A DNA stretch of 64,000 bases from Candidatus Kaiserbacteria bacterium (GTDB lineage Bacteria > Patescibacteriota > Minisyncoccia > Phycocordibacterales > UBA2100), in NCBI GenBank assembly GCA_016217925.1, contig JACRFK010000003.1:143656-207655 (forward strand), given 5' to 3'. The notes under the pieces were generated by a model, which was not told where the DNA came from, made no database searches, and was given only the letters and a program-made list of their open reading frames with translations. Positions 270 through 15,149 of this stretch are shown in pieces; positions within the stretch are counted from its first letter, which is position 1, and the number at the start of each line of letters is the position of its first letter. Position numbers and translations under genes: made by a program.

Positions 270-1565
270 TCACCATCCCATGGCTCGCCGCCTCCGGCTG
301 CGGTGCCAAGTGATGGCGAATCGGTGTGCTTCGCTATTGGCAAGCAATATGTCGTGCTCGTGGACGGAAATGGTGTGTCTGTCGCCGATGAGGCGCTCCG
401 GTTTGTGAAATTCATTCTTTACGACTCCGACGAGCGGCACGCTGATGCCGGCCTTGTTCAAGACTTTCTTTGCGGCATTCATCTGTCCTATGCCGCCGTC
501 GACAACAAAGACCCTCGGCAGCGGCCACTCGGGATGGCCGAGTCGTCGTTCAAGAACTTCGCGCAGAGCAGCAGTATCGTTGTTGGTGGCTGAATGAATC
601 TCGAATTTCCGGTACGCCGCGGGCAACTTCTCGCCGTTCGAAACAACCGTCATCACGGCTACCGTCTCGGAGCCCCCTGTGTGAGCCACATCGTATGCCT
701 CAATGCGGACGCCCCCGCCCGAGGAAATTTTGTTCTCACTTTTGATGAGCGACACATCGCGTATGTGTTCGAGTGCTGATATCTGCCGGCGGAGCTTTGT
801 CGCTTCTTCAAAATGCTCGCTCCTTGCGGCGGCCCGCATCTCACGCGCGAGCCGGCGTTTAAGCCCGTGAAAGTTCGCCGAGAACAGGTCTTTTATATTG
901 CGTATCGTTCGTGCGTACTCTACTTTCGATACTTCACCCGTGCAGACGCCTGGGCACAATCCTATCTGCCGGTTGAAGCACGGACGGCAAGGTTTGTTTT
1001 TGCCTTGTCCGCAGGGAATGCACTTCGAGTCACGGAACGGAAATATTCTTCGCACAGTTTTCACCGCCTCCTGCAGTTGCATTCCGTGCGGAAACGGCCC
1101 GAACGTGTACTTGACGTCCTTTTGGTCCCACTTTTGTCCTCCGAAGGAGGATCCGCCTCCGGCGGAATACAACTCGCGGCCGCGGACGAGGAGTACGCGA
1201 GGGAAATCTTCTTTTGTAATGACGACGTAGTTCCAACTCTTGTTGTCTTTTTCATCTACGTTGTACGGCGGCTGATGGCGCTTGATGAGTTCGGCTTCGA
1301 GTATGAGGGCTTCGAGCACCGAGCCTGTCGTCTGCGACGAGAGCCGGTCGGCCATCTCGACCATCCCGACGACCCGTCCGCCGCGTGCCGCAACGAGGTC
1401 GGCGGCAAAATAGCTCCGCACGCGGTCGCGCAAATTGGTCGCCTTGCCGATGTACAGAATTTTCCGTCCTTTTTTGAAGATATAAACTCCCGGCCTGTCC
1501 GGGAGCTTGAACTTCTTCAGTTCGTCCTTCGTCATCAGGACACTATACAGAAACCGCTTATCCAC
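270..1565 (-). CDS. uvrC: UvrC-like excinuclease ABC subunit C, short form (GIY-YIG nuclease, UvrC Cys cluster, RNase H-like endonuclease region)
   Basis: 431-aa ORF. N-terminal GIY-YIG motif GVYIFKKGRKILYIGKATNLRDRVRSYF. Cys cluster CIPCGQGKNKPCRPCF. Shorter than the canonical ~600-aa UvrC, probably lacking the C-terminal HhH. Confidence 0.8.
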   Translation of the reverse strand: MDKRFLYSVLMTKDELKKFKLPDRPGVYIFKKGRKILYIGKATNLRDRVRSYFAADLVAARGGRVVGMVEMADRLSSQTTGSVLEALILEAELIKRHQPPYNVDEKDNKSWNYVVITKEDFPRVLLVRGRELYSAGGGSSFGGQKWDQKDVKYTFGPFPHGMQLQEAVKTVRRIFPFRDSKCIPCGQGKNKPCRPCFNRQIGLCPGVCTGEVSKVEYARTIRNIKDLFSANFHGLKRRLAREMRAAARSEHFEEATKLRRQISALEHIRDVSLIKSENKISSGGGVRIEAYDVAHTGGSETVAVMTVVSNGEKLPAAYRKFEIHSATNNDTAALREVLERRLGHPEWPLPRVFVVDGGIGQMNAAKKVLNKAGISVPLVGVVKNEFHKPERLIGDRHTISVHEHDILLANSEAHRFAITWHRSRRRRAMGW

Positions 1566-1576
1566 CGCGAATTTGA

Positions 1577-1657
1577 CCCCGTTAGAGGCTCCGGACGCTG
1601 TGTGTATCTGGAACTATCGAACCCACGAGGTCTTTTCAGAGGCTGCCTCTAACGGGG
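1577..1657. repeat. Palindromic element, GTTAGAGG family: CCCCGTTAGAGGC, 55 nt, GCCTCTAACGGGG
   Basis: Exact 13-nt inverted arms at 1577-1589 and 1645-1657. The same arms recur at 14007-14035, and related arms at 15075-15105 and 52342-52425. Confidence 0.7.
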
Positions 1658-1685
1658 TTGACTTTTTCCCGACCCCGTTTATACT
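1658..1685 (+). promoter_or_regulatory. Sigma70-like promoter, TTGACT-16-TATACT, upstream of carA
   Basis: TTGACT at 1658-1663, 16-nt spacer, TATACT at 1680-1685. It lies about 100 nt upstream of the carA ATG and directly abuts the right arm of the palindromic element. Confidence 0.5.
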
Positions 1686-1789
1686 TACGTTTTAATGACC
1701 TCCAAGAAGTTTCCAACGACAAACACCCGCCCGGGTGTATTTTTATACCCTCACTCTCGACCCGCCTCTGGCGGGTCTTTTTCTAGCCT

Positions 1790-2860
1790 ATGAAATTGAT
1801 ACTCAAAGACGGTACGGTGTTCGAAGGGCAAAGCTTTGGTGCCCCCAAAAGTACCGCCGGCGAAGTGGTTTTTAATACCGGAATGACGGGATACGTCGAG
1901 AGCCTTTCTGACCCTTCGTACGCGGGACAAATCGTCGTCCTCACCTACCCGCTCGTGGGCAACTACGGCGTACCCGACAAGAAGTATTTTGAATCAAATA
2001 AGATGCAGATAGCGGGGCTAGTGGTCTCCGAATATTCGGAAAACTACTCACATCACGACGCAAAGGGGTCGCTCGCCGAGTGGCTCAAGTCTTCCGGCGT
2101 ACCCGCGATAACGGGCGTGGACACCCGCGCGCTCACCAAGCGCCTGCGCGAGCACGGGGTGATGTTAGGCGCGCTTAGCGTCAATCCCGCCAAGGGCGGG
2201 ACGAGGTTCACCGACCCAAATGACGAAAATCTCGTCGCCCGCGTGAGCATCAAAAAGAAAAAGACCTACGGCAACGGGCCGGTGAAAATAATCGCCGTTG
2301 ACTGCGGCATGAAAGAAAACATCGTTCGCGCGCTCACGCGACCCGAGACTACGGTCATCCGTGTACCGTGGGATTATGACTTCACCGAAGACAAGTACGA
2401 CGCGCTCTTTATTTCCAACGGCCCCGGCGACCCGACGCAATGCTGGATAACAATCGAACATATCAAGCACGCGATGTCTGCGGACAAGCCGATACTGGGG
2501 ATCTGCCTCGGTAATCAACTACTTGCACTCGCTGCAGGGGCAAAAACGTACAAGCTTAAGTACGGTCACAGAGGTCAAAACCAACCCTGCATAGATCTTG
2601 AGAACGGGCGCTGCTACATCACCTCACAAAATCACGGCTTCGCCGTGGACGGCAAAACACTCCCCGACGGATGGGGAGAATGGTTCGTGAATGCGAACGA
2701 CGGAAGCAACGAAGGTGTGCGGCACAAGACGAGGCCGTGGCGCTCGGTGCAATTCCACCCCGAAGCCTCCCCCGGACCCACCGACACCGCGTGGATATTC
2801 GATGAATTCATCGCCGCGTTGAGCAAGTCAGACCCGCACAAAAAGAAAACGTATGAATAA
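1790..2860 (+). CDS. carA: Carbamoyl-phosphate synthase small subunit (glutamine amidotransferase)
   Basis: 356 aa. CarA N-terminal domain, and GATase triad region GICLGNQLLALAAGAKTYKLKYGHRGQNQP. Confidence 0.9.
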   Translation: MKLILKDGTVFEGQSFGAPKSTAGEVVFNTGMTGYVESLSDPSYAGQIVVLTYPLVGNYGVPDKKYFESNKMQIAGLVVSEYSENYSHHDAKGSLAEWLKSSGVPAITGVDTRALTKRLREHGVMLGALSVNPAKGGTRFTDPNDENLVARVSIKKKKTYGNGPVKIIAVDCGMKENIVRALTRPETTVIRVPWDYDFTEDKYDALFISNGPGDPTQCWITIEHIKHAMSADKPILGICLGNQLLALAAGAKTYKLKYGHRGQNQPCIDLENGRCYITSQNHGFAVDGKTLPDGWGEWFVNANDGSNEGVRHKTRPWRSVQFHPEASPGPTDTAWIFDEFIAALSKSDPHKKKTYE

Positions 2861-5800
2861 AGTCCGCAAGGTGCTGCTGTTGGGTTCGGGGGGCCTTCGC
2901 ATCGGTCAGGCGGGTGAGTTTGATTACTCCGGCTCGCAGGCTATCAAGGCGCTCAAAGAGGAGGGTGTCAAAGTCGTACTGATGAATCCGAATATCGCAA
3001 CGGTGCAGACGGATGATAAGCTCGCGGACACCGTGTACTTTCTCCCCCTCACAGAACACTTCGCAACGCAGGTGATAAAGAAAGAAAAGCCCGATGCCAT
3101 ATTGCTCTCCTTCGGCGGGCAGACGGCTCTCAATCTCGGACTCTCGCTCGAAGAGCGCGGAGTCTTGAAAAAGTACAGCGTACGCGTACTCGGCACATCG
3201 GTCGCCACTATCCGCGACACCGAGGACCGCGAGCTATTTGTGCGACGTCTTTCGGAAATCGGTGTAAAGACCGCGCAAAGTCGGGCGACAGAAAATGTAC
3301 GAGACGCACTGAAAGCCGCGGGCGAGATAGGCTACCCGGTAATGATGCGTTCGGGCTTTGCACTCGGCGGTGAAGGGTCGGGAGTCGTTCACAACGAGAA
3401 GGAATTATCTGTGAAGCTAACGGAGGTGTTCAGGAACGTACCGCAGGTTCTCATCGAGGAAAACCTGAGCGGCTGGAAAGAGGTCGAATACGAAGTGGTG
3501 CGCGACCGCGCCGACAACTGCATCACGGTGTGCAATATGGAAAATCTCGATCCGATGGGCATTCATACAGGCGAGAGCATCGTCGTCGCGCCGTCGCAGA
3601 CGCTATCGAATGCCGAGTATCACGGACTTCGCGAGATAGCGATTAAAACGATACGCCACTTGGGAATTGTCGGAGAATGCAACATCCAGTATGCCCTTCA
3701 TCCGCAGACAGGTGACTACCGCGTCATCGAGGTGAACGCCCGCCTCTCGCGCTCTTCCGCGCTCGCATCGAAAGCCACAGGATATCCGCTCGCCTTCGTG
3801 GCCGCCAAGCTCGCGCTCGGATACAAGCTCACCGATATCAAGAATTCAGTCACTGGCAAAACGACTGCCTGCTTCGAGCCCGCACTCGATTACCTCGTCC
3901 TCAAAGCCCCACGCTGGGACCTGACAAAATTCGAGAACGCGGCACCTCGCATCGGTACCGAAATGAAAAGCGTCGGAGAGGTCATGGCCATTGGCCGCTC
4001 TTTCGAAGAAGTGCTGCAAAAAGCGCTTCGCATGCTCAACGTCGGCGTAGACGGATTCGTGCCCGCAAAAAACCCTTGTCCGAAAACCCGGTATTTGGAC
4101 GAAATACAGTACCCGACGACTCGTCGCATCTTTGCGCTCGCGGAAGCGCTGCACGACGGCGTCAATGTGGCCAAGCTGCACGACCTATCCAAAATTGACC
4201 CGTGGTTTCTGGAAAAGATGGGCAATATCGTCGGACTGGAACGTGAACTTAAGAGAAAGAAGTTGACCAAAGAGCTACTCGCACGCGCAAAACGCGCGGG
4301 ATTCTCCGATAAGCGCATTGGAACGTTGAAGAAAACGACTGAAGTGGCCGTCCGCTCTCTCCGCGCGCGCTTGCACGTGTTACCCGTCGTCAAACAGATA
4401 GACACACTTGCGGGTGAATTCCCCGCACAGACCAATTACCTGTACATGACCTACCACGGCACCGAAAACGATGTTGCGCGCGGAAAAAATCAGGTTGCCG
4501 TTTTGGGAAGCGGCCCGTATTGCATCGGCTCATCAGTCGAATTCGATTGGTCCTGCGTACAGGCGCTCAAAACTTTGAAGGCGGAAGGGCGCAACACCAT
4601 CATGATCAATTCCAACCCCGAGACCGTTTCGACCGATTACGACATGTCCGACCGGCTGTATTTCGAGGAACTTTCGCTTGAGCGCGTACTCGACATTGTC
4701 GATTTTGAGCGACCTCTCGGCGTCGTTATCTCAACCGGCGGCCAGATACCCAACAATCTCGCACTTCCGCTGCAGCGCAACAAGGTCAGAATTCTCGGCA
4801 CGGACCCGCAAAATATCAACCGTGCCGAAGACCGTCACGTATTCTCCAAATTGCTCGACGAGCTCGGTATTGACCAGCCCGAGTGGGCGGAACTCACCAC
4901 TCCCGCAGCAGCGGCGAAAGCGGCCGAGAAACTCGGCTACCCGGTCCTCGTGCGTCCCTCATACGTCCTCTCGGGTGCCGCGATGAAGGTGGCCTATGAT
5001 GAGAAATCTTTGCTTGAATTCCTTCAGCGCGCCGTTGACGTATCGTCCGACCACCCCGTTGTGATTTCAAAATTCATCGAGAACGCGCGCGAGATAGAAA
5101 TAGACGGCGTGGCACACAAGGGCGCGCTCGCAATCTACGCCATTACCGAACACATCGAAAATGCCGGCACGCACTCGGGCGACGCCACCGTGGTATTGCC
5201 GCCCCAGCGCACCTACCTCGAGACCATCCGGCGCGCCAAGCACATCACGAAGGATATTTTGAAGGCGCTGAAGATTACCGGCCCCTTCAATATGCAATTC
5301 ATCGCCAAAGACAATCACCTGCTTGTCATCGAGTGTAATCTGCGCGCCTCGCGCAGTTTCCCGTTCGTCTCAAAAGTGACGGGACACAATTTCATCAACC
5401 TCGCGGTACGCGCCATGCTAGGCAAAGATATCGCCGGCCACTATCGGACCGTCGAGCTTGATACCGTCGCCGTGAAATCGCCGCAATTTTCCTACGGCCG
5501 CATCAAGGGGGCCGACCCGCACACGAGCGTGGAGATGGCCTCGACTGGCGAAGTGGCGTGTTTCGGCGATTCCTATTCCGAGGCACTTCTCAAATCTATG
5601 ATGGCCGCGGGTTTCCGTTTGCCGAAGAAGAACGTACTTGTATCTCTCGGCAAAGAGGAGAATAAGATCAAGATGCTGCCGGCTGTAGCCGTGCTCGCCA
5701 ATATGGGATTCAAGCTCTACGCGACCGAGCACACGGCGGATTTTCTGCGCGAGAACAACATCCCGTGCGAGAAAGTCTATAAGATAAGTTCAAATATTGC

Positions 5801-6116
5801 GCCCAACGTCTCGGGGCTGTTCGAGGGCGGCGAGCTTGACCTCATCATCAACATCCCTACGAAGGGGCGCGAGAACACGACAGACGGCTTCACCATCCGC
5901 CGCAAGGCGATTGATATGAATATTCCGCTTATCACCAACCGCCAACTCGCCGAAGCCTTCATAACGGCGCTTGCGGAACAGAAAGCGGAGCGAAGCGGAG
6001 TCCCGCACCAAAAGCCAAAGAAGAAACACATTGGCACTTCAAAAGAGAATGGTAAGCTTTTTGGTGCTGGGAGATACGGACTGGAAGCGAAATCGTGGGA
6101 AGAATATCGTTCATAG
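2853..6116 (+). CDS. carB: Carbamoyl-phosphate synthase large subunit
   Basis: 1087 aa. Two ATP-grasp halves, oligomerisation domain and MGS-like domain. Start overlaps the carA stop by 8 nt. Confidence 0.95.
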   Translation: MNKVRKVLLLGSGGLRIGQAGEFDYSGSQAIKALKEEGVKVVLMNPNIATVQTDDKLADTVYFLPLTEHFATQVIKKEKPDAILLSFGGQTALNLGLSLEERGVLKKYSVRVLGTSVATIRDTEDRELFVRRLSEIGVKTAQSRATENVRDALKAAGEIGYPVMMRSGFALGGEGSGVVHNEKELSVKLTEVFRNVPQVLIEENLSGWKEVEYEVVRDRADNCITVCNMENLDPMGIHTGESIVVAPSQTLSNAEYHGLREIAIKTIRHLGIVGECNIQYALHPQTGDYRVIEVNARLSRSSALASKATGYPLAFVAAKLALGYKLTDIKNSVTGKTTACFEPALDYLVLKAPRWDLTKFENAAPRIGTEMKSVGEVMAIGRSFEEVLQKALRMLNVGVDGFVPAKNPCPKTRYLDEIQYPTTRRIFALAEALHDGVNVAKLHDLSKIDPWFLEKMGNIVGLERELKRKKLTKELLARAKRAGFSDKRIGTLKKTTEVAVRSLRARLHVLPVVKQIDTLAGEFPAQTNYLYMTYHGTENDVARGKNQVAVLGSGPYCIGSSVEFDWSCVQALKTLKAEGRNTIMINSNPETVSTDYDMSDRLYFEELSLERVLDIVDFERPLGVVISTGGQIPNNLALPLQRNKVRILGTDPQNINRAEDRHVFSKLLDELGIDQPEWAELTTPAAAAKAAEKLGYPVLVRPSYVLSGAAMKVAYDEKSLLEFLQRAVDVSSDHPVVISKFIENAREIEIDGVAHKGALAIYAITEHIENAGTHSGDATVVLPPQRTYLETIRRAKHITKDILKALKITGPFNMQFIAKDNHLLVIECNLRASRSFPFVSKVTGHNFINLAVRAMLGKDIAGHYRTVELDTVAVKSPQFSYGRIKGADPHTSVEMASTGEVACFGDSYSEALLKSMMAAGFRLPKKNVLVSLGKEENKIKMLPAVAVLANMGFKLYATEHTADFLRENNIPCEKVYKISSNIAPNVSGLFEGGELDLIINIPTKGRENTTDGFTIRRKAIDMNIPLITNRQLAEAFITALAEQKAERSGVPHQKPKKKHIGTSKENGKLFGAGRYGLEAKSWEEYRS

Positions 6117-6446
6117 AAAAGGAGCGGGAGGGGGGACGCGTGTTACCGACGCAATACAAAACGCAAAACTGATGAGTCCCCCTCCCTCTGCGCCTTTACG
6201 GCACAATCTCGCATTGGCGGATACCCTCAGGGTCCGCGACACAATGCGAACACGAACACAACGTACACAACTGACGCAACGCTACAACATCCCTTACTAG
6301 GGATCGCGGAGTGCGAAGTCCCCTTCGCTTCAACCGCCTCACGGATATTCCGGATTACGTCCGGAGGTCCGTGGAGTCCGCCGAAAGACTTAGCTGGGCA
6401 GCGAAGCTATCGACGGAGTGAAAGGTATGTATACATTATTTGGAGG

Positions 6447-6575
6447 ATTTCTTCAACATTCTCTTCAAATAGTACCCCGTGTGAGAGCCGTCGGTCTTTG
6501 AGACTTCTTGGGGTGTACTCTTAGCAACCAAGTGAGATGGTCGATACTTTGATAATGACACCATTTAGTTTGATG
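6447..6575 (-). pseudogene. Diverged duplicate of the uvrA 3' end (remnant ORF, 42 codons)
   Basis: Minus-strand translation is [42 protein letters not shown]. The real UvrA C-terminus, encoded at 7543-7640, is [32 protein letters not shown] 25-nt core gagccgtcggtctttgagacttctt is identical in both copies. Confidence 0.6.
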
Positions 6576-6631
6576 TAGAATATAAAAAGCAGCGCCGCTT
6601 TGCCTATGTTGGGGCAAAGCGGCGAGAGTTG

Positions 6632-7426
6632 CTACCAGAGCCTAGTAGCACCGATTTTCTTGAAGAACGCCTCTCTCGGGTCTTCCCGAGGTGGAGGTTC
6701 GCAGCCGAACGCAAATGCGACGTCTAGCCGATTCCACCAGGATTCCCGATTCACGTTGAGGCAGGTGAACATGTTATCGTAGAAGTCCGGCCCCCCGCCA
6801 CAGTATGTGTGCACTCCGATGGCTAGCACGACAAGCTGTTGCTCGGACAAAGGAAACGGGTCGTGGAACCCGGCAATTTTGGAACCGCTAAGGCCATAAC
6901 GCCCTGTCCCTATGATGCGTTCGACTTGGAACGGCATCAATTGATGACGTAGACGCGGCATGATGCCTGCGGGAAGTTTCTTGTAGCCAAAGTTATCCAC
7001 GGCAGCCTCCACGCAGGAGAAATCGGACTTGTCGTTCGAAGTCTCTTTGCATGGAATGTCTGCGCCGGGGACAATCGCTATGTAATAATCCTTCCCCGGC
7101 TCCAAGATATGCCCGCCGTTGCTCAAGTGACGTTCGAGCGCATGTTGAGCATAGCTATCAGCCCTTTCTTTTGGGGCGTATCCGGCGGCTCGGAGGAGTT
7201 CTAGCTCCTTTGCTCCGTCAAGACCGAGGCCTCTGACGGTCAACATGAGATGCCCGTGTTCGTTATATTCGAACATCGACGGACCCCAGCAGGGTTGGCG
7301 TTTGACGAACTTCTTCAATTCCGTAAGTGCCTCCTCGCCGTCGTCTGCGGCGAGAAGATCGTCAAGGGCGCCTTTCGGTCCGCGCACTCGGCGGAGCGAA
7401 AGTGTTCCGAGCATACCTTTCGGCAT
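6632..7426 (-). CDS. Hypothetical protein, 264 aa, no recognisable domain
   Basis: Intact ORF. Consensus SD AAGGAG sits 7 nt upstream of the ATG. Extended -10 promoter lies immediately after the uvrA stop. The gene sits between the duplicated uvrA 3' ends. Confidence 0.6.
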   Translation of the reverse strand: MPKGMLGTLSLRRVRGPKGALDDLLAADDGEEALTELKKFVKRQPCWGPSMFEYNEHGHLMLTVRGLGLDGAKELELLRAAGYAPKERADSYAQHALERHLSNGGHILEPGKDYYIAIVPGADIPCKETSNDKSDFSCVEAAVDNFGYKKLPAGIMPRLRHQLMPFQVERIIGTGRYGLSGSKIAGFHDPFPLSEQQLVVLAIGVHTYCGGGPDFYDNMFTCLNVNRESWWNRLDVAFAFGCEPPPREDPREAFFKKIGATRLW

Positions 7427-7500
7427 GGTCGTTCTCCTTGTTTTGATTTCAACGAGCGGTCATGAAATGCGAGCGAATCTCGAATCCCACCGCAACGGTG

Positions 7501-7530
7501 CATTATATCATGATGTCATAAAAAAGCAAG
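7501..7530 (-). promoter_or_regulatory. Sigma70-like promoter TTGCTT-N17-TGaTATAAT for the 264-aa gene
   Basis: Reverse complement reads cttgcttttttatgacatcatgatataatg. It begins right after the uvrA stop codon at 7543-7545. Confidence 0.55.
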
Positions 7531-7542
7531 AGCTTCACAAGT

Positions 7543-10287
7543 TTATTTAATCATCCTTTTCTTCAATGTGCGTTTCAAGTAGTATCCCGTATGCGAGCCG
7601 TCGGTCTTTGAGACTTCTTCGGGTGTGCCCTTTGCTACGATTTTTCCGCCTCCTGCTCCCCCTTCGGGCCCCATGTCGATGATGTAATCGGCGCATTTCA
7701 AGACGTCGAGATTGTGCTCGATAGCTATCACGGTATTGCCGCGTTCGACAAGCTTCTGGAGAATATCTACAAGCTTTGCGACGTCGTCATAGTGGAGTCC
7801 GACCGTCGGCTCGTCGAGCAGGTAGACGCTTTTTGTAATGAGCGGACGGTAGAGCTCGGACGCGATTTTCACGCGCTGCGCTTCTCCGCCGGAGAGCGTC
7901 GTCGCACTTTGACCGAGTTCCAGATATCCGAGCCCGACGTCAATAAGGCTTTGCATTCTATCGGATACCGCAGGTATATCTTCGAAAAACGCGTACGCTT
8001 CCTCGACGGTCATGGAGAGCACATCGTGAATACTCTTTTTCTTGTACTTCACTTCGAGCGTCTCCTTCATAAAGCGCTTCCCGTTGCACACATCGCAGGT
8101 CACGTACACGGTCGGCAAAAAGTGCATCTCGACTGCGACAAGCCCATTGCCTTGGCATGCCTCGCACCGTCCGCCTTTCACGTTGAAAGAGAAGCGCCCG
8201 GGCCCCCAACCGCGCGCCCGCGCCTCTTCGCTCATGGCAAACATGTCGCGGATATGTGTCCACGCCCCCGTGTAGGTCGCTGGATTGCTGCGCGGGGTGC
8301 GGCCGATTGCGGATTGGTCTATCAAAATCGCCCGCCCGAGGTACTCGGTGCCCGAGAATTCTTTTGCGTTGTAGATTTTGGCGGTGCGATATCGTTTGTC
8401 GAAACGCGCCTGCAAATTGCGGTGAAGGATTTCGTAGAGAAATGTAGACTTTCCCGAGCCGGAAACACCCGAAACAACGACAAACTTTCCGAGCGGTACA
8501 TCCACGTTGAGATTTTCGATATTGAACTTCCCCGCGCCGCGTATTTTGATCTTGCCTCGGTCGGCGGTACGTCGCGTTTCGGGAATCTCAATCCTTATTT
8601 CATCCCTCAAATATTGCAACGTCCGTGAGACGTGCGCGCCTGCCCCGTAGGAAGCTTTGCTTTCCTTCGGGGAGCCGGATTTGTTGGTTTTAGCGGTGAG
8701 CAAGTCTTCAAGCCACCCATCCACAACCACTTCCCCGCCGTGTACGCCCGCACCGGGGCCGAGGTCAACGATGTAATCCGAAGCAAAAATGGTGTCTTCG
8801 TCGTGTTCAACGACGAGAACGGTGTTGCCGAGGTCGCGTAAGTGTTTCAACGTCTCGATGAGCTTGTCGTTGTCGCGCTGATGCAAGCCGATTGTCGGCT
8901 CGTCGAGCACATAGAGCGCGCCCACAAGCCCCGAGCCGAGCTGTGAGGCAAGCCGGATGCGTTGCGCCTCACCGCCCGACAAGGTATTCGCCTTTCTATC
9001 CAGCGTCAGGTATTCGATGCCCACATTGAGCATGAACTGCAGGCGCGAAGTTATCTCCTTGATGACAACGCGGGAAATGTCTTGTTCTTTTTTCGTGAGT
9101 TTCAGTTTGTTGAAAAAGTCCATCGCATCTTCGATTGAAAGGGACGAGAGATGTACGATGTTCATGCCCGTGGCCGGACCGTCGTTACTCTCCGGTTGCT
9201 TCACGTGTCCGAGAAATACATTTAGTGTTTCCGGTCGAAGACGCGCGCCCTCACAGACGTCGCATGCCTCATCGCCAAAGAAATATTTCGTCCCCAACCC
9301 TTTGCACTCCGGGCACGCGCCGTAGGGTGAGTTGAAGGAGAAGAGGCGCGGTTCAATTTCAGGAAATGAAAAGCTGTCGTACGGACACATGAATTTGGCC
9401 GAGACGATACGGGACTCCCCCGCCGCGTCGGTAATTTTTACCAATCCTTCGCTCTCGTGCAGCGCGCGCTCGATAGCCTCCGATGCGCGCTCATGCGCGG
9501 CTTTGGCGTCGTCCGCAAATTCAGAGACGAATATTTCGTCAACGACAATATCAATGTCGTGCTTGAAATGCTTCTTGAGGTCGACGCGCTCGCGGAGTGA
9601 CTTTTCCTCACCGTCTATAACGGCCTTCTCGTACCCTTTGTTGAGCATGTCGTAAAGGAGCTGGTAGTATTCTCCTTTCCGACCAACTACCACGGGAGAC
9701 GATATCCGTATCTTCGCTCCTGAAACTCCCGCTGTCAGCTTTCCTTTTCCCCGAGAACCGACCTCTGTGCTTTTCCCCGAGGTCGGTTCTCTGTGCTTTC
9801 GAGCCGCTTCGACGATGGAAAGCACCGATTCCAGTATCTCTTCGTTGGAAAGTTTGCGGACCTCACGGCCGCAAATCGTGCAGTGCGGCTTGCCCACACG
9901 CGCGTACAGCACGCGGAGGTAGTCGTAAATCTCGGTGATGGTCGCGACCGTCGAGCGCGGGTTGTTGGAGCGGGATTTTTGGTCTATTGAAATTGCGGGT
10001 GAAAGTCCCGTTATCTCGTCCACATCGGGCTTTTGCATTTGGCGTAAAAACTGCCTTGCGTATGCGGAAAGCGATTCCACGTACTTGCGCTGGCCCTCGG
10101 CAAAAATGGTATCAAAAGCAAGCGAAGACTTCCCGCTTCCGGAAAGCCCCGTGAAAACGACCATCTTGTTGCGTGGTATCTCAACACTGATGTTCTTCAG
10201 GTTGTGTGTCCGCGCCCCTTTGATGACGATTTTACCTGCCCCGACCGTAGCGTCGGGGTCTGAACCTTGTCTTCTTGAATTTGGCAT
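7543..10287 (-). CDS. uvrA: Excinuclease ABC subunit A
   Basis: Two ABC ATPase modules with zinc-finger insertions and conserved UvrA blocks throughout. The listed ORF extends to 10473, but the conserved N-terminus begins at MPNSRRQG...[15 protein letters not shown], so the start is probably near 10287. Confidence 0.9.
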
Positions 10288-10400
10288 ATATAGTTCCGAC
10301 CCCCGCTTTGCGCTAGGGGTTAGTATGGGGGATTGTATCAGAAACAGGAAGGGACCGCGATGTGCGGCCCCACTCCACTTTTCATTCTCCGACGCGGCGA

Positions 10401-10763
10401 TCATTCCGGCGTGGACAGCGCAAGCTTGTGCCACGGGATGACGTGACTTCTTCCACGCAGGAAGACGATGCATCCTTCCTCGCCTTCGTGATAGTTGCGC
10501 CGGCGATGTTCGTAGTCCTCCCGGTCGGGCACCCTCCCGACGAGAGCGGCCGGAAAATTTTCGTGCATGTACAGCAGATAGACTTTCTCGCCGTACGGCG
10601 GTCCATCCGAGCCCGTAAGGGCACGGGGGTCCGAAGGCGGGGGCGTAAATCGATAGTCGGCCGCACTGCGATTCCTTGCTGCACGACGACCGCGACCCGA
10701 ACGTCCGGCATCCGCATAGAAGTTACCCAAACCTGTCGATCTTCTCATGACACAACCCTCCAA
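10401..10763 (-). CDS. Hypothetical small protein, about 120 aa, Arg-rich N-terminus
   Basis: GGAGGG sits 7 nt upstream of the ATG at 10763. It lies downstream of the terminator of the 335-aa gene. An extended -10 TGaTACAAT for uvrA lies beyond it. Sequence is GC-rich and shows no recognisable domain. Confidence 0.35.
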
Positions 10764-10827
10764 GTCGCTCCATGCGACTGAACCGTAAGCACCCTACAAT
10801 AAGATGAACTCCCCGTAAAGGGAGTAG

Positions 10828-10873
10828 TAAATTGAAAACGAAACGGCGGCGGACCCCACGAGGGTCCACCGCC
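10828..10873 (-). terminator. Intrinsic terminator after the 335-aa gene
   Basis: GC-rich hairpin ggcggtggaccc / gggtccgccgcc, followed on the minus strand by GTTTCGTTTTC. Confidence 0.45.
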
Positions 10874-10932
10874 AGTTGCCAGTTGATTGAAGATCAGTTT
10901 TTTGTAGCTCCCGCAAGATGGGGCGACCCCAT

Positions 10933-11940
10933 TCACAGGTCGCGCTCCCTTGCCTTAGGATTTTGCGTAACACCGCCGGAGTGTCCAATGGTGCCAAGAC
11001 GCTCATAGTCGAGAGTGTCAAGATCCACGGGAACAAACACTCCATACTTGTCGATGAACGCATCGATCAGCTGCAAGGCTTGGGTGCAGCTTGCCGTCAT
11101 CCTGTAAATCTGGAAATTGCGGGCCTCCAGATCGGCGGCATCGCCGACGAAGATGATTTGCTTCATCGGCACGAGCGGCCATTGCAACCGCCGCCACCAG
11201 GACATGAATTTCCCGCGGAATCCTTTGGGAATTTCATTCTTGGATAGAGATGCCTTTTCAGGGGCTAAAGGCCATTGCAACTGGCGTCGCCAATGGAACT
11301 TCAGCCCCACGTCGGTTCCGTTCGGCCCGCCCTGCTTCACATGAAGCCGGGCGAACCCTGCGTAGTAGATCTTGTCGTTCAGGCCAGCAGCAACAACTGC
11401 ATGTCGCATCTGCGGGTAGACGAGCAAGGCAAAGTCGCTGAACCGATTTCTCAAGACGAAATCCTCAGCGAAGATTTGAGCCCTGAAAGTCGCGGCAAGT
11501 TTCCCAGGACCCGCCGCCCACTCGATGATGCGACAAAGCATTTCGGCATCTTCGACGCGATATTCGTCGCCTTGCACCGCGGTGACACTGGCTGGTTTTC
11601 GACCCATCCAGTGCCGGAAGCTAACGCGGTAGTCGACCGACTCCTTGGCGGGACTTGTGAGCAAACACCTCCAAATATAAAGAATCTGGGATGTGAAGTG
11701 TCTGAAGAAGTCGTCGCCGGTGAAGTCGGGGGTTGCGCGAAGTCGGATGGCCTGCGAAAGGCGGTCCCGAATTGCCGTCGCCGTGATACGTTGGATCGCA
11801 ACTTTGGCGACATATTCGGGGCCGGTTAAACAAGCCGGTGTTGACGACGTTTCGTAGAACTTTGCTTGGATGGCTTCAGCGAAACCGGACGACGAAGTGA
11901 TTGGCCCTTTCGCCAGATCCCTCATTAGGTTTTGAATCAT
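10933..11940 (-). CDS. Hypothetical protein, 335 aa, with an internal tandem duplication (possible R-x4-H motif, unverified)
   Basis: No recognisable family. The protein repeat WRRQLQWPLAPEK... / WRRLQWPLVPMK is encoded by a 93-nt tandem duplication at 11177-11310. It has its own consensus promoter and terminator. Confidence 0.6.
   Translation of the reverse strand: MIQNLMRDLAKGPITSSSGFAEAIQAKFYETSSTPACLTGPEYVAKVAIQRITATAIRDRLSQAIRLRATPDFTGDDFFRHFTSQILYIWRCLLTSPAKESVDYRVSFRHWMGRKPASVTAVQGDEYRVEDAEMLCRIIEWAAGPGKLAATFRAQIFAEDFVLRNRFSDFALLVYPQMRHAVVAAGLNDKIYYAGFARLHVKQGGPNGTDVGLKFHWRRQLQWPLAPEKASLSKNEIPKGFRGKFMSWWRRLQWPLVPMKQIIFVGDAADLEARNFQIYRMTASCTQALQLIDAFIDKYGVFVPVDLDTLDYERLGTIGHSGGVTQNPKARERDL
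11177..11310. repeat. 93-nt intragenic tandem duplication, 1.4 copies
   Basis: ggccattgcaaccgccgccaccagg... is repeated as ggccattgcaactggcgtcgccaatgg... Confidence 0.6.
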
Positions 11941-12027
11941 AGCCCCTTGTTTCCTCTACTGGGGTTGCACTGATTGTGGGCTACGCACTCACGCTTACTG
12001 TTACGCTACACTACAATATTAACAGCT

Positions 12028-12059
12028 AGTATAATGCCTCTTTAAAGCTCATTTGTCAA
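12028..12059 (-). promoter_or_regulatory. Sigma70 consensus promoter, TTGACA-18-ATTATA, for the 335-aa gene
   Basis: Reverse complement reads ttgacaaatgagctttaaagaggcattatact. It lies in the 125-nt gap between the murB stop and the gene start. Confidence 0.5.
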
Positions 12060-12065
12060 CTTCGG

Positions 12066-12986
12066 TCAGAGGACAGCGGCTTCCTCGTGAAGCTCGACGC
12101 CAAATTGCGATTTGACCGCCTCTTTTACCTCTTCCGCAAGCTGTCTGACATTCTCAGCCGTGGCATTTCTTTGGTTCACGAGGTAATTTGGATGTTGGAG
12201 CGATGCTATTGCGCCGCCTACCGTCGCGCCTTTCATGCCCGCCTTTTCGATAAGCCAACCCGCGGGGACTCTTCCCTCGCGGGATTTCGTCTGCTTTTCA
12301 CGCTCGAACATTGCGACGATTTCCGCGGGCGCCGTGGGATTCATAAAGTAGGAACCAGCAGCACGCACATTCTGCAAATGCCGTCTTTCCCGCTCTGCAA
12401 TAGTTTCGTCGGCGAGTTTTGCGCTCACTGTGGGGTCAACTTTTTCAAGGCGGATAAAGACGCGTGTGATTATCCATTCCGGATGGTCTTTGAAAAAGCT
12501 GTGGCGATATGAAAAATCACATTCTTGATTCACAAAATCTTTTATCTCGCCTGTTTCGGAATTGAGTGCACGTACATTTGTCACAAAATCTTTTATCTCC
12601 GGCCCGAACGCTCCCGCATTGCCGCGCACCGCCCCCCCGATAGTGCCCGGAATACCCGCGAGCTTCTCCCATCCACCCCAGCCCTGGGCACCAAGAGCCC
12701 GCATCGCCGAGAGGAGATTCGTCCCCGCCCACGAATCCACAGCGCCATTGTTGCAAGCATACAGGTCACCGCGAAGCCTCACGACGAGCGCGTCGATTCC
12801 TTCGTCGGGTATGAGCACGTTGCTCCCGCCGCCGAGAATTACAACTCTGAGTTTATTGTCTGCCGCCCACGCGAGCGCCTCGCGGATATCCGCCTCCGTG
12901 CGCACGCTCAGCAAATATTTTGCAGGCCCCCCAATCTCAAAAGTTGTAAGGGAAGCAAGTAGGACGTTTTCTTTGACCTTCTGCAT
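12066..12986 (-). CDS. murB: UDP-N-acetylenolpyruvoylglucosamine reductase
   Basis: FAD-binding MurB N-terminus LLASLTTFEIGGPAKYLL and C-terminal domain. The start MQKVKEN lies 1 nt after the uvrB stop, so the two are probably co-transcribed. Confidence 0.85.
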   Translation of the reverse strand: MQKVKENVLLASLTTFEIGGPAKYLLSVRTEADIREALAWAADNKLRVVILGGGSNVLIPDEGIDALVVRLRGDLYACNNGAVDSWAGTNLLSAMRALGAQGWGGWEKLAGIPGTIGGAVRGNAGAFGPEIKDFVTNVRALNSETGEIKDFVNQECDFSYRHSFFKDHPEWIITRVFIRLEKVDPTVSAKLADETIAERERRHLQNVRAAGSYFMNPTAPAEIVAMFEREKQTKSREGRVPAGWLIEKAGMKGATVGGAIASLQHPNYLVNQRNATAENVRQLAEEVKEAVKSQFGVELHEEAAVL

Positions 12987-12987
12987 A

Positions 12988-15051
12988 TTATTTCTTCTTT
13001 CTGTTTTTCTCCTCCAGCTTCTGTATTTCATCACGAATAAGCGCGGCTGTCTCGAAATCAAGTTTGTCAGCCGCTTCGTGCATCTGATTGCGCTTGTCTT
13101 TTATGAGCTTCCTGATGTCCCCTCCGTATGCAGCTTTATCCATCTCCGCAAGCTCGCTCACCGCGCGCTTGCGGCTTCGCTCGATGTCGCCAACGATGTC
13201 GTGAATGCGTTTCTCTATCGTCTTCGGCGTGATGTGATGTTTTTTGTTGTACGCCTCCTGTATCGCACGCCGCCTGTTGGTCTCGCCTATCGCACGCCCC
13301 AAGGAGCCCGTCATCAGATCGGCGTAAAGAATGACGCGGCCCCTGACGTTCCTCGCCGCGCGACCGATAGTCTGGATGAGCGAAGTGTCACTGCGCAAAA
13401 ATCCCTCTTTATCAGCGTCTAGAATTGCGACCAGTTCGACTTCCGGCAGGTCCAAGCCTTCACGCAACAAGTTCACGCCGACGAGCACGTCGAAGGTTCC
13501 TTTGCGGAAATCGGTAAGGATTTCGATGCGGTCAATAGTTTTCACATCACTGTGCACGTAGCGTGCTTTTATTTTCTTCTCGACGAGGAACTGCGTGAGG
13601 TCTTCCGCCATCTTTTTGGTCAGCACCGTCACCATGGAGCGCGCACCGCTTTTCGTCACCGCTTCGGCTTCTGCAATAAAATCTTTGACCTGCCCTTCAT
13701 AATCCGTGCCACTTACGATGGGGCGGACGACAATTTGCGGATCGACGAGGCCCGTCGGGCGGATCACCTGGGAAATCGGCTCGCCGCTGTGTTCGAGCTC
13801 AAATTTGCCCGGAGTCGCCGAGGTGTAGATGGTTTGTCCTGTGCGCTCCTGAAATTCAGCAAAGTTGAGCGGACGGTTGTCGACGGCACTCGGAAGCCGG
13901 AAACCGTGTTCGACGAGCGTATCCTTGCGCGCCCGATCTCCCGCATACATACCACCGATCTGCGAGACGGTCACGTGCGATTCGTCAATGACGGTGAGGA
14001 AACCTGCCCCGTTAGAGGCGATGCCTCTAACGGGGTCCGGAAATAACTTTGCACAGGCGTGAAAGTAATCAATCAAGGTATACGGCGGCTCCCCGGGCTT
14101 TCGCCTGTCGAAATGACGCGAGTAGTTCTCGATACCGTTGCAAAATCCGAATTCGCGTATCATCCCTATGTCCTGGCGCGTGCGACGTTTGAGACGCTCA
14201 GCTTCAAGGATTTTCCCTTCGCCGTTGAATTTCTTAAGTTGTTCCGCAAGTTCAATTTCAATATCCGCAAGCGCCGCCTCCAACACATCTTTGGGGGTTA
14301 CGTACTGACGTGCGGGAAAAATAAACATTGCATCGTGCTTCGCACCCAGTTTGCGCGTCATCGCGTCCACTTCCTCGATTTTCGCGATTTTTCCGCCCGT
14401 GAGGTCGACGCGGTAGATGACGCGTTCGCTCGCGGGCATGATCTCAACGGTAGCGCCAAGCGCACGAAATGTCCCCGGCGAAAGCTCGCCCGCGGTGCGC
14501 TCGAAATAGATAGAGACGAGTTTGCGCGACAGGTGGCTGCGCGTCATCTGTTCGCCCTTCGTCAGTTTGAGATTTACTTTTTGATATTCGATAGGGCTGC
14601 CTAAACCGTAGATGCAGGAGACGGATGCGACGACGATGACGTCCTTGCGCGTGAGGAGGGCCTGTGTCGCTGCGTGCCGCAGGCGTTCGATGTCTTCATT
14701 TATCATCGCTTCCTTCTCGATATACGTATCAGTAACCGGCATGTACGCTTCCGGCTGGTAGTAATCGTAGTAGGAGACGAAATAATGCACCGCGGCGTCG
14801 GGAAAGAAATCGCGGTACTCGGCGGCGAGCTGCGCCGCGAGTGTTTTGTTGTGCGCGATGACGAGCGTCGGTCTCTGCACTTTTTCAACGACATTGGCAA
14901 TGGTGAAGGTCTTGCCGGAACCTGTAACCCCCAAAAGCGTCTGGTCACGTGTACCCGTTTTCAGACTTTTTACGAGCGCAGAAATAGCCTCCGGCTGATC
15001 GCCGCCAGGCCGATAGTCGCTTTTTAGCTTGAATACGCCGCCTGATTTCAT
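12988..15051 (-). CDS. uvrB: Excinuclease ABC subunit B
   Basis: Helicase motifs (GVTGSGKTFT, DESHVT) and a C-terminal UvrB/UvrC interaction coil. Start is taken as ATG MKSGGVF at 15049-15051. The stop of the upstream uORF overlaps this ATG. Confidence 0.9.
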   Translation of the reverse strand: MKSGGVFKLKSDYRPGGDQPEAISALVKSLKTGTRDQTLLGVTGSGKTFTIANVVEKVQRPTLVIAHNKTLAAQLAAEYRDFFPDAAVHYFVSYYDYYQPEAYMPVTDTYIEKEAMINEDIERLRHAATQALLTRKDVIVVASVSCIYGLGSPIEYQKVNLKLTKGEQMTRSHLSRKLVSIYFERTAGELSPGTFRALGATVEIMPASERVIYRVDLTGGKIAKIEEVDAMTRKLGAKHDAMFIFPARQYVTPKDVLEAALADIEIELAEQLKKFNGEGKILEAERLKRRTRQDIGMIREFGFCNGIENYSRHFDRRKPGEPPYTLIDYFHACAKLFPDPVRGIASNGAGFLTVIDESHVTVSQIGGMYAGDRARKDTLVEHGFRLPSAVDNRPLNFAEFQERTGQTIYTSATPGKFELEHSGEPISQVIRPTGLVDPQIVVRPIVSGTDYEGQVKDFIAEAEAVTKSGARSMVTVLTKKMAEDLTQFLVEKKIKARYVHSDVKTIDRIEILTDFRKGTFDVLVGVNLLREGLDLPEVELVAILDADKEGFLRSDTSLIQTIGRAARNVRGRVILYADLMTGSLGRAIGETNRRRAIQEAYNKKHHITPKTIEKRIHDIVGDIERSRKRAVSELAEMDKAAYGGDIRKLIKDKRNQMHEAADKLDFETAALIRDEIQKLEEKNRKKK
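14007..14035. repeat. Perfect 29-nt palindrome CCCCGTTAGAGGC-GAT-GCCTCTAACGGGG inside the uvrB coding sequence
   Basis: It encodes DPVRGIASNG in frame. It lies within a roughly 17-aa insertion relative to E. coli UvrB (recalled from memory), between the conserved LIDY and VIDESH blocks. Confidence 0.7.
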
Positions 15052-15149
15052 ACACAACAATGAAATGAGTCCCGCCCCGTAGGAAGCTGCGCTTTCCTAC
15101 CGGGGTCGCCGGCGGGCTTGTAGGCCGCCTTCAGTTTGAACTTACTCAT
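15048..15149 (-). CDS. uORF or leader peptide, 33 aa, MSKFKLKAAYKPAGDPGRKAQLPTGRDSFHCCV, coupled to uvrB
   Basis: The N-terminus mimics the UvrB N-terminus FKLKSDYRPGGDQ. The TGA stop overlaps the uvrB ATG as ATGA. It contains the palindrome at 15075-15105. Confidence 0.5.
   Translation of the reverse strand: MSKFKLKAAYKPAGDPGRKAQLPTGRDSFHCCV
15075..15105. repeat. Palindrome CCCCGTAGGAAGC-TGCGC-TTTCCTACCGGGG, a diverged member of the GTTAGAGG family
   Basis: Inverted arms lie within the uvrB leader uORF. Confidence 0.5.

Follow-up and report, generated by a model that had tools for sequence, protein, structure and literature searches.

At the 3' end of uvrA, a 64-kb window of a 376-kb contig (the window being the whole stretch of DNA that was analysed) carries an open reading frame (ORF) of 264 amino acids (aa), here named ORF264. 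In NCBI, the genome is listed as Candidatus Kaiserbacteria and ORF264 is annotated as a hypothetical protein. It was originally predicted to be a well-expressed orphan gene without a recognizable domain, inserted between duplicated uvrA ends and possibly representing cargo of a novel function. The position and length of the ORF were confirmed, while its strand (minus) and a strong terminator had been absent from the original prediction (Table 1). ORF264 lies in a foreign insert of ~1.1 kb, in which promoter, gene and terminator make up a cassette of 1.0 kb. No other substantial ORF in the insert has a protein-family match, and ORF264 itself is not hit by any recombinase model. The insert is base-for-base identical in the Logan assembly that was made independently from run SRR12113407 (locus L123), and is therefore not an assembly artefact.

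The expression signals that had been claimed for ORF264 could all be located, namely AAGGAG ahead of the ATG, followed upstream by TGaTATAAT and TTGCTT just past uvrA. The promoter-like site starts 13 nucleotides (nt) past the uvrA stop codon (7543-7545). Its TATAAT hexamer occupies 7502-7507, with the TG one base upstream of this -10 hexamer. The spacer between the two hexamers measures 16 nt and not 17 nt, as had been counted. A promoter scan did not list this site, as TTGCTT fits TTGACA at only three of the six positions. The term 'well-expressed' is based on these sequence signals, from which we infer that ORF264 would be transcribed from its own promoter. It had also been stated that most genes of the window lack a Shine-Dalgarno (SD) sequence. 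This holds roughly: in a crude count, a 5-mer SD core was found near any candidate start in 10 of the 48 long ORFs. An SD-like sequence also precedes the homologues of ORF264, where it is visible as an in-frame 'RRTTM' or 'KLTM'. A cis-regulatory RNA in the 5' untranslated region (UTR) was considered as well and rejected (no Rfam match, fold z-score 0.02).

No match for ORF264 was obtained in Pfam, NCBIfam, PHROGs, PADLOC or the PDB sequences, in line with the predicted lack of a recognizable domain. The strings that had been pointed out in its translation, GTGRYGLSGSKIAGFHDPFPL and HTYCGGGPDFYDN, are present, and so is the C-terminus containing Trp and Cys.

Table 1. Features at the ORF264 locus, in window coordinates (DGR, diversity-generating retroelement; VR, variable region)
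Feature	Position	Strand	Description or basis
carB	2853..6116	plus	converges on uvrA; other flank of the hotspot; Pfam, synteny with relatives
uvrA 3'-end remnant, copy B	6436..6528	minus	displaced, 93 nt; repeat part 6448-6528
Distal insert stretch, 64 nt	6529..6592	minus	TATATT box; matches no fetched locus but L123 (second assembly of the same locus)
Intrinsic-terminator-like hairpin and T-run	6583..6624	minus	12-bp stem at 6593-6624, 9 G-C pairs; begins 8 nt after the ORF264 stop
ORF264 (NCBI HY971_00960)	6632..7426	minus	ATG-to-stop ORF, 264 aa; DGR-target-family protein, no DGR in the window
C-terminal extension, 23 residues and stop	6632..6703	minus	past the 'AFAFG' motif; typical family members are without it (alignment A1)
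C-terminal domain, residues 148-241	6704..6985	minus
DGR VR equivalent, residues ~193-241	6704-6850	minus	VR coordinates of L120-L122 mapped via blastp alignment and alignment A7
Middle domain, residues ~50-147, NEHGH motif	6986..7279	minus	alignment A1
N-module, residues 1-47	7286..7426	minus	M-KGMLG-L-L--VRGP...DG...L-ELKKF-KR-PCW; in Patescibacteria fused to many unrelated C-termini
Shine-Dalgarno AAGGAG	7434..7439	minus	7 nt ahead of the ORF264 ATG
Promoter-like site of ORF264	7502..7529	minus	-35 TTGCTT 7524-7529, 16-nt spacer, extended -10 TGaTATAAT 7502-7510; read from the sequence
uvrA, functional copy	7543..10473	minus	Pfam UvrA_inter and ABC_tran
uvrA 3'-end repeat, copy A	7558..7638	minus	part of the working gene; direct repeat D1

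A family of diversity-generating retroelement targets

An exhaustive phmmer search of 1.84 billion representatives (cut-off E<=1e-3) returned 108 homologues of ORF264, nearly all from Patescibacteria. They form a coherent family that is aligned across the whole core, so the term 'orphan' does not apply. In a word-indexed search, the sole match was ORF264 itself; the same type of search with a 79-sequence alignment (saturated) returned two proteins. The 90%-identity cluster of ORF264 contains one sequence, which is the sole variant on record.

The homologues fall into two classes. The first comprises ~80 proteins of 170-240 aa that match residues ~50-250 of ORF264, with the consensus FERNEHGH-V-TI-GL-LTG--EI-RL ... 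HRL--G--Y-IAL-P--EI ... GY--P-AGI-PRIRE--SD-QM--MG---I--LH-PI-D--G---VL ... W---GAFAF (alignment A1). The second consists of ~25 proteins that match residues 1-50 alone, at 50-70% identity, and whose C-termini are unrelated (alignments A2 and A3). ORF264 is aligned across the full core with 78 homologues in A1, and the family hidden Markov model matches it over the whole core as well (E 8e-39). As judged from these alignments, ORF264 is modular: behind a 47-residue N-module come the middle 'NEHGH' domain and a C-terminal domain, of which the last ~45 residues are the VR in DGR-linked homologues. Within the middle domain, H59 and G71 are invariant and N55, G58, G66, E74, Y102, H106 and L108 nearly so (A1). 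Nothing was found by Pfam and NCBIfam for 79 family members, or by Pfam for 62 N-module proteins.

Some relatives show further arrangements. The top-scoring homologue, P0002 (509 aa), contains tandem N-modules (1-48 and 66-115), the NEHGH core and an extra C-terminal region of ~200 aa. The gene of L003 (2451-2660), closest to ORF264 among the relatives, begins 126 nt past a tRNA-His; it is equipped with a near-consensus promoter of its own, and its 5' UTR is homologous to that in the window. Another, more distant N-module gene, L004 (5651-6001), is located ~280 nt past a tRNA-Asn.

A diversity-generating retroelement (DGR) works from a template repeat (TR) that itself stays invariant: its reverse transcription introduces errors specifically at adenines, and the resulting cDNA takes the place of the variable region (VR), located at the 3' end of the target gene. 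The target proteins are ligand-binding as far as known. A survey of distribution and gene neighbourhoods, as had been suggested along with the original prediction, led to such elements. A scan for the N-module in one genome per species gave 51 loci, nearly all in metagenome-assembled genomes of Patescibacteria (Parcubacteria, Paceibacteria, Kaiser-, Taylor-, Wolfe- and Zambryskiibacteria; some labelled otherwise). The neighbouring ORFs were clustered in the 33 loci with usable flanks, 15 of which proved DGR-linked: a short copy of the gene's own 3' end follows ~270 nt on, and a gene of ~330-380 aa lies ~800 nt downstream. A small gene on the opposite strand is present in four loci. According to Pfam, the larger gene is an RVT_1 reverse transcriptase (RT; E 1e-25) and the small gene a bAvd.

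When the last ~130 nt of the N-module genes are compared with the downstream copy, the mismatches are found almost solely at adenines of that copy (examples: L010 12/12, L022 11/11, L019 17/17, L020 19/19, L032 15/15, L040 16/16 and L009 13/13). The NEHGH family displays the same pattern. In three loci that encode close relatives of a typical member, the VR/TR mismatches at TR adenines amount to 18/20 (L120), 12/12 (L121) and 23/23 (L122), and an RVT_1 gene was called downstream in two of them. Since VR/TR mismatches that are almost confined to TR adenines are the defining signature of DGRs, the comparison of these repeats shows the NEHGH/N-module family to be DGR target genes.

ORF264 itself is similar to these targets in blastp comparisons, with E 2e-19 and 34% identity over 170 aa for the DGR-linked L122 target and E 1e-18 for P0109/L120 target. 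It is thereby shown, on sequence grounds, to be a member of the Patescibacteria DGR variable (target) protein family. A DGR clade ('clade 2') that is confined to Patescibacteria and has targets without recognizable domains was described by Roux et al. 2021 (PMC8144416). Such targets are abundant, while their function, location and fold are uncharacterised; the authors expect the uncharacterised VR domains of the candidate phyla radiation to be new variants of the C-type lectin (PMC8144416). The class of Patescibacteria DGR targets to which ORF264 belongs is thus known, but undescribed. The first survey of the clade is said to be that made by Paul and co-workers in 2017.

Two other origins of the family were tried and rejected. 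A phage origin finds no relatives among the IMG/VR viral contigs, which fits cellular DGRs. For a homing endonuclease, there is no nuclease motif or model, and the family context is that of DGRs.

Linkage to a DGR is not universal in the family. About half of the N-module genes have no RT within 3.5 kb, and the family members P0055 and P0111 are likewise without an adjacent RT. Unlinked copies thus seem common, as far as the fetched loci indicate. L016 (2941-3663 and 5992-6681), L034 and L047 hold two paralogous DGR-type genes, or one that is nearly identical to DGR-linked genes, with no RT within 3.5 kb.

Between VR/stop and terminator, an element of ~60 nt is kept in L120 (6690-6790), L121 (6653-6760), L122 (5488-5600), L010 (2244-2350) and L022 (1091-1200). 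It contains a short hairpin of the GGTC-TTTCA-GACC type and may be the structure for DGR target recognition in the Patescibacteria clade.

The AlphaFold model of ORF264 that was built with the 79-sequence alignment reaches a pLDDT of 81 and a pTM of 0.75; from the single sequence, the result was useless (pLDDT 35). In the model, two N-terminal helices (the N-module) precede an alpha/beta core, and the final three or four strands carry the VR equivalent. The structure search that had been proposed for ORF264 was carried out on this model with Foldseek, and no match was found in PDB or BFVD, including any solved DGR variable protein. The search thus does not demonstrate the C-type-lectin fold that DGR variable regions would be expected to have. 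Scattered NTF2-like matches were weak (TM <=0.17) and were disregarded. Searches of the PDB sequences with ORF264 and with three profiles gave nothing significant, and no distinctive NNC-codon or adenine-depletion signal was seen in the VR equivalent.

The insert and the uvrA/carB spacer

The location of ORF264 between duplicated uvrA ends was confirmed. The two copies (6448-6528 and 7558-7638) correspond to the last 27 uvrA codons; these 81 nt are 83% identical, lie 1110 nt apart and share an identical stretch of 25 nt. They differ at 14 of the 81 positions, mostly synonymously (nonsynonymous rate dN 0.079, synonymous rate dS 0.947, dN/dS 0.083). Each copy thus evolved at the end of a functional uvrA, in separate lineages, and the two were joined only afterwards. 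A duplication in place followed by decay was rejected, as it would not yield a mostly synonymous divergence. In copy B, two residues that are conserved without exception among the listed relatives are replaced (G to S and E to Q in VAKGTPEEV), as is expected once the remnant is no longer translated.

Empty carB/uvrA sites were found in seven of the nine closest uvrA relatives compared (L072, L096, L103, L116, L117, L084 and L089). There, carA-carB converges on uvrA across a short spacer, at 76-82% nucleotide identity. In L072, the single uvrA 3' end matches both copies of the window, and the spacer past it matches window positions 6076-6253. The remnant (copy B) is therefore in the ancestral position.

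Two further relatives contain other inserts at the same place. In L067 (1382-2751; identical in L113), with 82% nucleotide identity in uvrA, a 1.2-kb insert encodes an unrelated 261-aa ORF without a Pfam match. It also contains a uvrA remnant of ~115 nt (…KRTLKKSSK*) and a ~95-nt copy of the carB 3' end that is closer to the carB of other lineages than to its own. From this foreign carB fragment it follows that a carB-cargo-uvrA segment of a donor chromosome had come in. In L058 (55-2803), 2.6 kb are inserted between duplicated uvrA ends, with a PemK/MazF toxin, a HepT-like RNase plus MNT nucleotidyltransferase and an unknown ORF of ~270-358 aa. The HepT/MNT pair is flanked by two direct copies of a 44-nt repeat (782-825 and 1526-1569, 93% identity). 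The length of the uvrA remnant varies among the three inserts: 81 nt in the window, ~115 nt in L067 and at least 165 nt in L058. A Pfam scan of the other ORFs in the L058 and L067 inserts gave no recombinase domain. The comparison of these loci shows the uvrA/carB spacer as an insertion hotspot, used repeatedly by unrelated cargo without an encoded integrase.

The adjacency to uvrA reflects this hotspot, and there is no sign of a functional link to repair. Membership of a housekeeping family with conserved synteny next to uvrA, which had been named as contradicting the original prediction, was not observed: no such synteny exists in 66 related uvrA loci. Among the fetched family loci, only L037 holds a uvrA fragment, 5.7 kb from the N-module gene. 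As to the proposal of novel cargo, the empty sites in relatives and the dN/dS between the uvrA copies support horizontally acquired cargo at uvrA, while the novel function gives way to the DGR-target family. Flanking duplications are absent in 41 of 43 other N-module loci with usable flanks. A 49-nt pair in L012 (1358-1406 and 3134-3180, 88% identical) lies just past the stops of two neighbouring genes of ~275 aa, which may be tandem paralogues with similar 3' ends. L015 has a weak flanking pair of 26 nt.

Several other genes surround the site. uvrC, uvrA and uvrB are all located in the window at 270-15060, where they are interleaved with carA, carB, murB and a 335-aa ORF (10933-11940, no Pfam match). 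With 976 aa, the listed uvrA ORF includes an N-terminal extension (10288-10473) that does not resemble UvrA; the gene was independently called at 953 aa, preceded upstream by a distinct ORF of 115 aa (L123 3282-3629).

The insert is considered to have arrived by recombination and not by site-specific integration, as its junctions and those of the related inserts suggest. The cassette would have entered the convergent uvrA/carB spacer along with the uvrA 3' end of another allele, leaving one of the two uvrA-end copies as a 93-nt remnant. The likely route would be a homologous anchor in uvrA that is closed by an illegitimate second join. As an alternative, a small circle, excised between such repeats, could integrate at the uvrA homology. 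Natural competence has been documented in Saccharibacteria, a part of the Patescibacteria (PMC10633639). Homology-facilitated illegitimate recombination, described in Acinetobacter, is a known outcome of transformation (PMC3410848, PMC8116780). Sliding identity along uvrA resolved no recombination breakpoint, since at ~80% identity the relatives are too far removed.

A dedicated integrase is unlikely by comparison. Such a cassette would be cis-mobilisable: attB would be the uvrA 3' end, the 81-nt repeats would represent attL and attR, and a recombinase encoded elsewhere would act in trans. A gene's 3' end in direct repeat, where the incoming copy restores the gene, is indeed the classic footprint of an integrative element. 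The 25-nt identical core in both copies, the three independent inserts at one gene end and the N-module genes behind tRNAs (126 nt past tRNA-His in L003, ~280 nt past tRNA-Asn in L004) can be read in the same way. However, none of the three inserts contains a recombinase gene, the duplicated lengths and left boundaries differ from event to event, and the L067 copies lack a long identical core. The carB fragment of L067, moreover, implies a segment of a donor chromosome instead of an element bearing attP.

ORF264 as a stand-alone copy

The search for a DGR in the genome of ORF264 covered the 64-kb window of the contig. Three RT queries and one Avd query from related loci gave only noise over the window by tblastn (best E 1.6). 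A sensitive blastn search with the 3' 400 nt of ORF264 revealed no second copy, and thus no TR, in the same 64 kb. The ~60-nt post-VR element is missing; the terminator comes straight after the stop codon. Together with the 23 extra codons, the poorly aligned VR equivalent and the single variant on record, these results indicate that ORF264 is probably a stranded copy of a DGR target, with a fixed sequence that is no longer diversified. It would then be a constitutively expressed binding protein of fixed specificity. Homology and the AlphaFold model suggest that it binds a ligand via the surface equivalent to the VR. Overall, we favour with moderate confidence that ORF264 is a stand-alone protein of the Patescibacteria DGR-target family that came to uvrA/carB as a cassette acquired by recombination.

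Other explanations of ORF264 have to be weighed against this one. It is rather improbable that ORF264 is the active target of a remote DGR, of which RT and TR elsewhere in the genome still diversify residues ~193-241. The family is DGR-linked, and unlinked copies are common given that about half of the N-module genes have no RT nearby; the readable part of the contig was also limited to 64 of 376 kb. On the other hand, there is no TR in the window, the post-VR element is missing and 23 more codons follow the VR equivalent. This region is also strongly diverged from the family consensus, contains an insertion and is on record in one variant. The 'Cys/His enzyme, toxin or repair factor' of the original prediction, in which the DGR-type C-terminal domain would be a targeting module only, is less probable still. 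The conservation of N55, H59, E74, Y102, H106, Y148 and H188 in the NEHGH family would suit a His/Glu hydrolase. Toxin-antitoxin genes occur among the other hotspot cargo (L058), and PMC10907252 describes DGR-diversified sensors fused to effector domains in other bacteria. Nevertheless, ORF264 matches no enzyme, toxin or defence model and no known structure, and an immunity or antitoxin gene that could be its partner is missing from the insert. Neither the NEHGH motif, with its His residues, nor H106 is conserved in the related DGR targets L004, L010 and L022, and the position at uvrA is explained by the hotspot. A ribbon-helix-helix (RHH) DNA-binding N-module, which would turn ORF264 into a transcription regulator, is very improbable. 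It would agree with the module length, the two predicted helices (18-26 and 30-43) and a superficial likeness to the Arc repressor. The hhalign probability is only 9.9%, though, no RHH Pfam model was found for any of 21 modules at E<=10, and a profile search against the PDB sequences gave neither an RHH nor another significant match.

Several observations also count against the stand-alone, recombination-acquired protein that we favour. ORF264 is a divergent member of the family (about 30% identity) with a poorly alignable VR equivalent, and a binding surface is therefore proposed from homology and the AlphaFold model alone. Compared with its sole close relative L003 (65% aa identity; L003 ends at the contig end), dN/dS is 0.41 over 88 codons, which indicates only moderate constraint on the protein. 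The lack of a Foldseek counterpart belongs here as well. A remote TR and RT elsewhere in the genome are possible, as only 64 kb of the contig were read. None of the 66 related uvrA loci contains a family member, and no donor with ORF264 beside uvrA was found. Finally, the signs as to which uvrA end is resident and which one is incoming are ambiguous (A: KRTL; B: KKSSK*). The KKSSK* tail of copy B is shared with L072 and the L067 remnant, and the KRTL of copy A is shared with both too. A crossover inside the shared core would explain these mixed affinities.

Beyond the stand-alone reading itself, a wider and more speculative proposal can be made, which we regard as possible but rather doubtful. 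The NEHGH/N-module family would provide a VR scaffold other than the C-type lectin, with the conserved N-module as a new docking or localisation domain that Patescibacteria DGR targets have in common. Frozen copies such as ORF264 would be selected for their specificity (e.g. host-cell or phage recognition). Each would move from lineage to lineage as a cassette of promoter, gene and terminator, using RecA-dependent recombination at hotspots beside conserved genes, of which the uvrA/carB spacer would be one.

The analysis provides a family definition (N-module, NEHGH domain and VR domain) for proteins without a Pfam or NCBIfam match. With a confident model that has no detectable structural relative, the question whether all DGR variable regions are C-type lectins becomes directly testable. 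If it is a natural target gene split from its retroelement, ORF264 could be used in a ligand search without hypervariation. The three integrase-free inserts at one uvrA end, in turn, are sequence-level evidence of cargo uptake by ultra-small, probably competent bacteria.

Comparison with known systems

The insert shares several traits with 3'-end genomic islands and cis-mobilisable elements: direct repeats of the target 3' end, an intact gene and a displaced remnant. It is unlike them in the missing recombinase, the variable repeat boundaries and the donor flank DNA in one of the inserts. In homology-facilitated illegitimate recombination, a one-sided anchor is likewise combined with a variable junction, which explains the different remnant lengths and the carB fragment of L067. 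Here, this process is deduced from the end products alone, and no junction microhomology could be defined.

When ORF264 is compared with the DGR targets of the Patescibacteria clade, it differs in the absence of TR, RT and Avd from the window, the missing post-VR element, the C-terminal extension and its solitary position in a foreign insert. It is alike in being small, without a match to any curated domain and encoded by a cell instead of a virus, with no signal peptide or transmembrane segment evident. The solved DGR variable proteins, such as Mtd of Bordetella phage BPP-1 and TvpA of Treponema, have a C-type-lectin fold. For ORF264, neither sequence searches nor Foldseek detected any similar PDB chain, but the logic is the same as in these proteins: the VR, or its equivalent, is located at the C-terminal end of a compact, substitution-tolerant domain.

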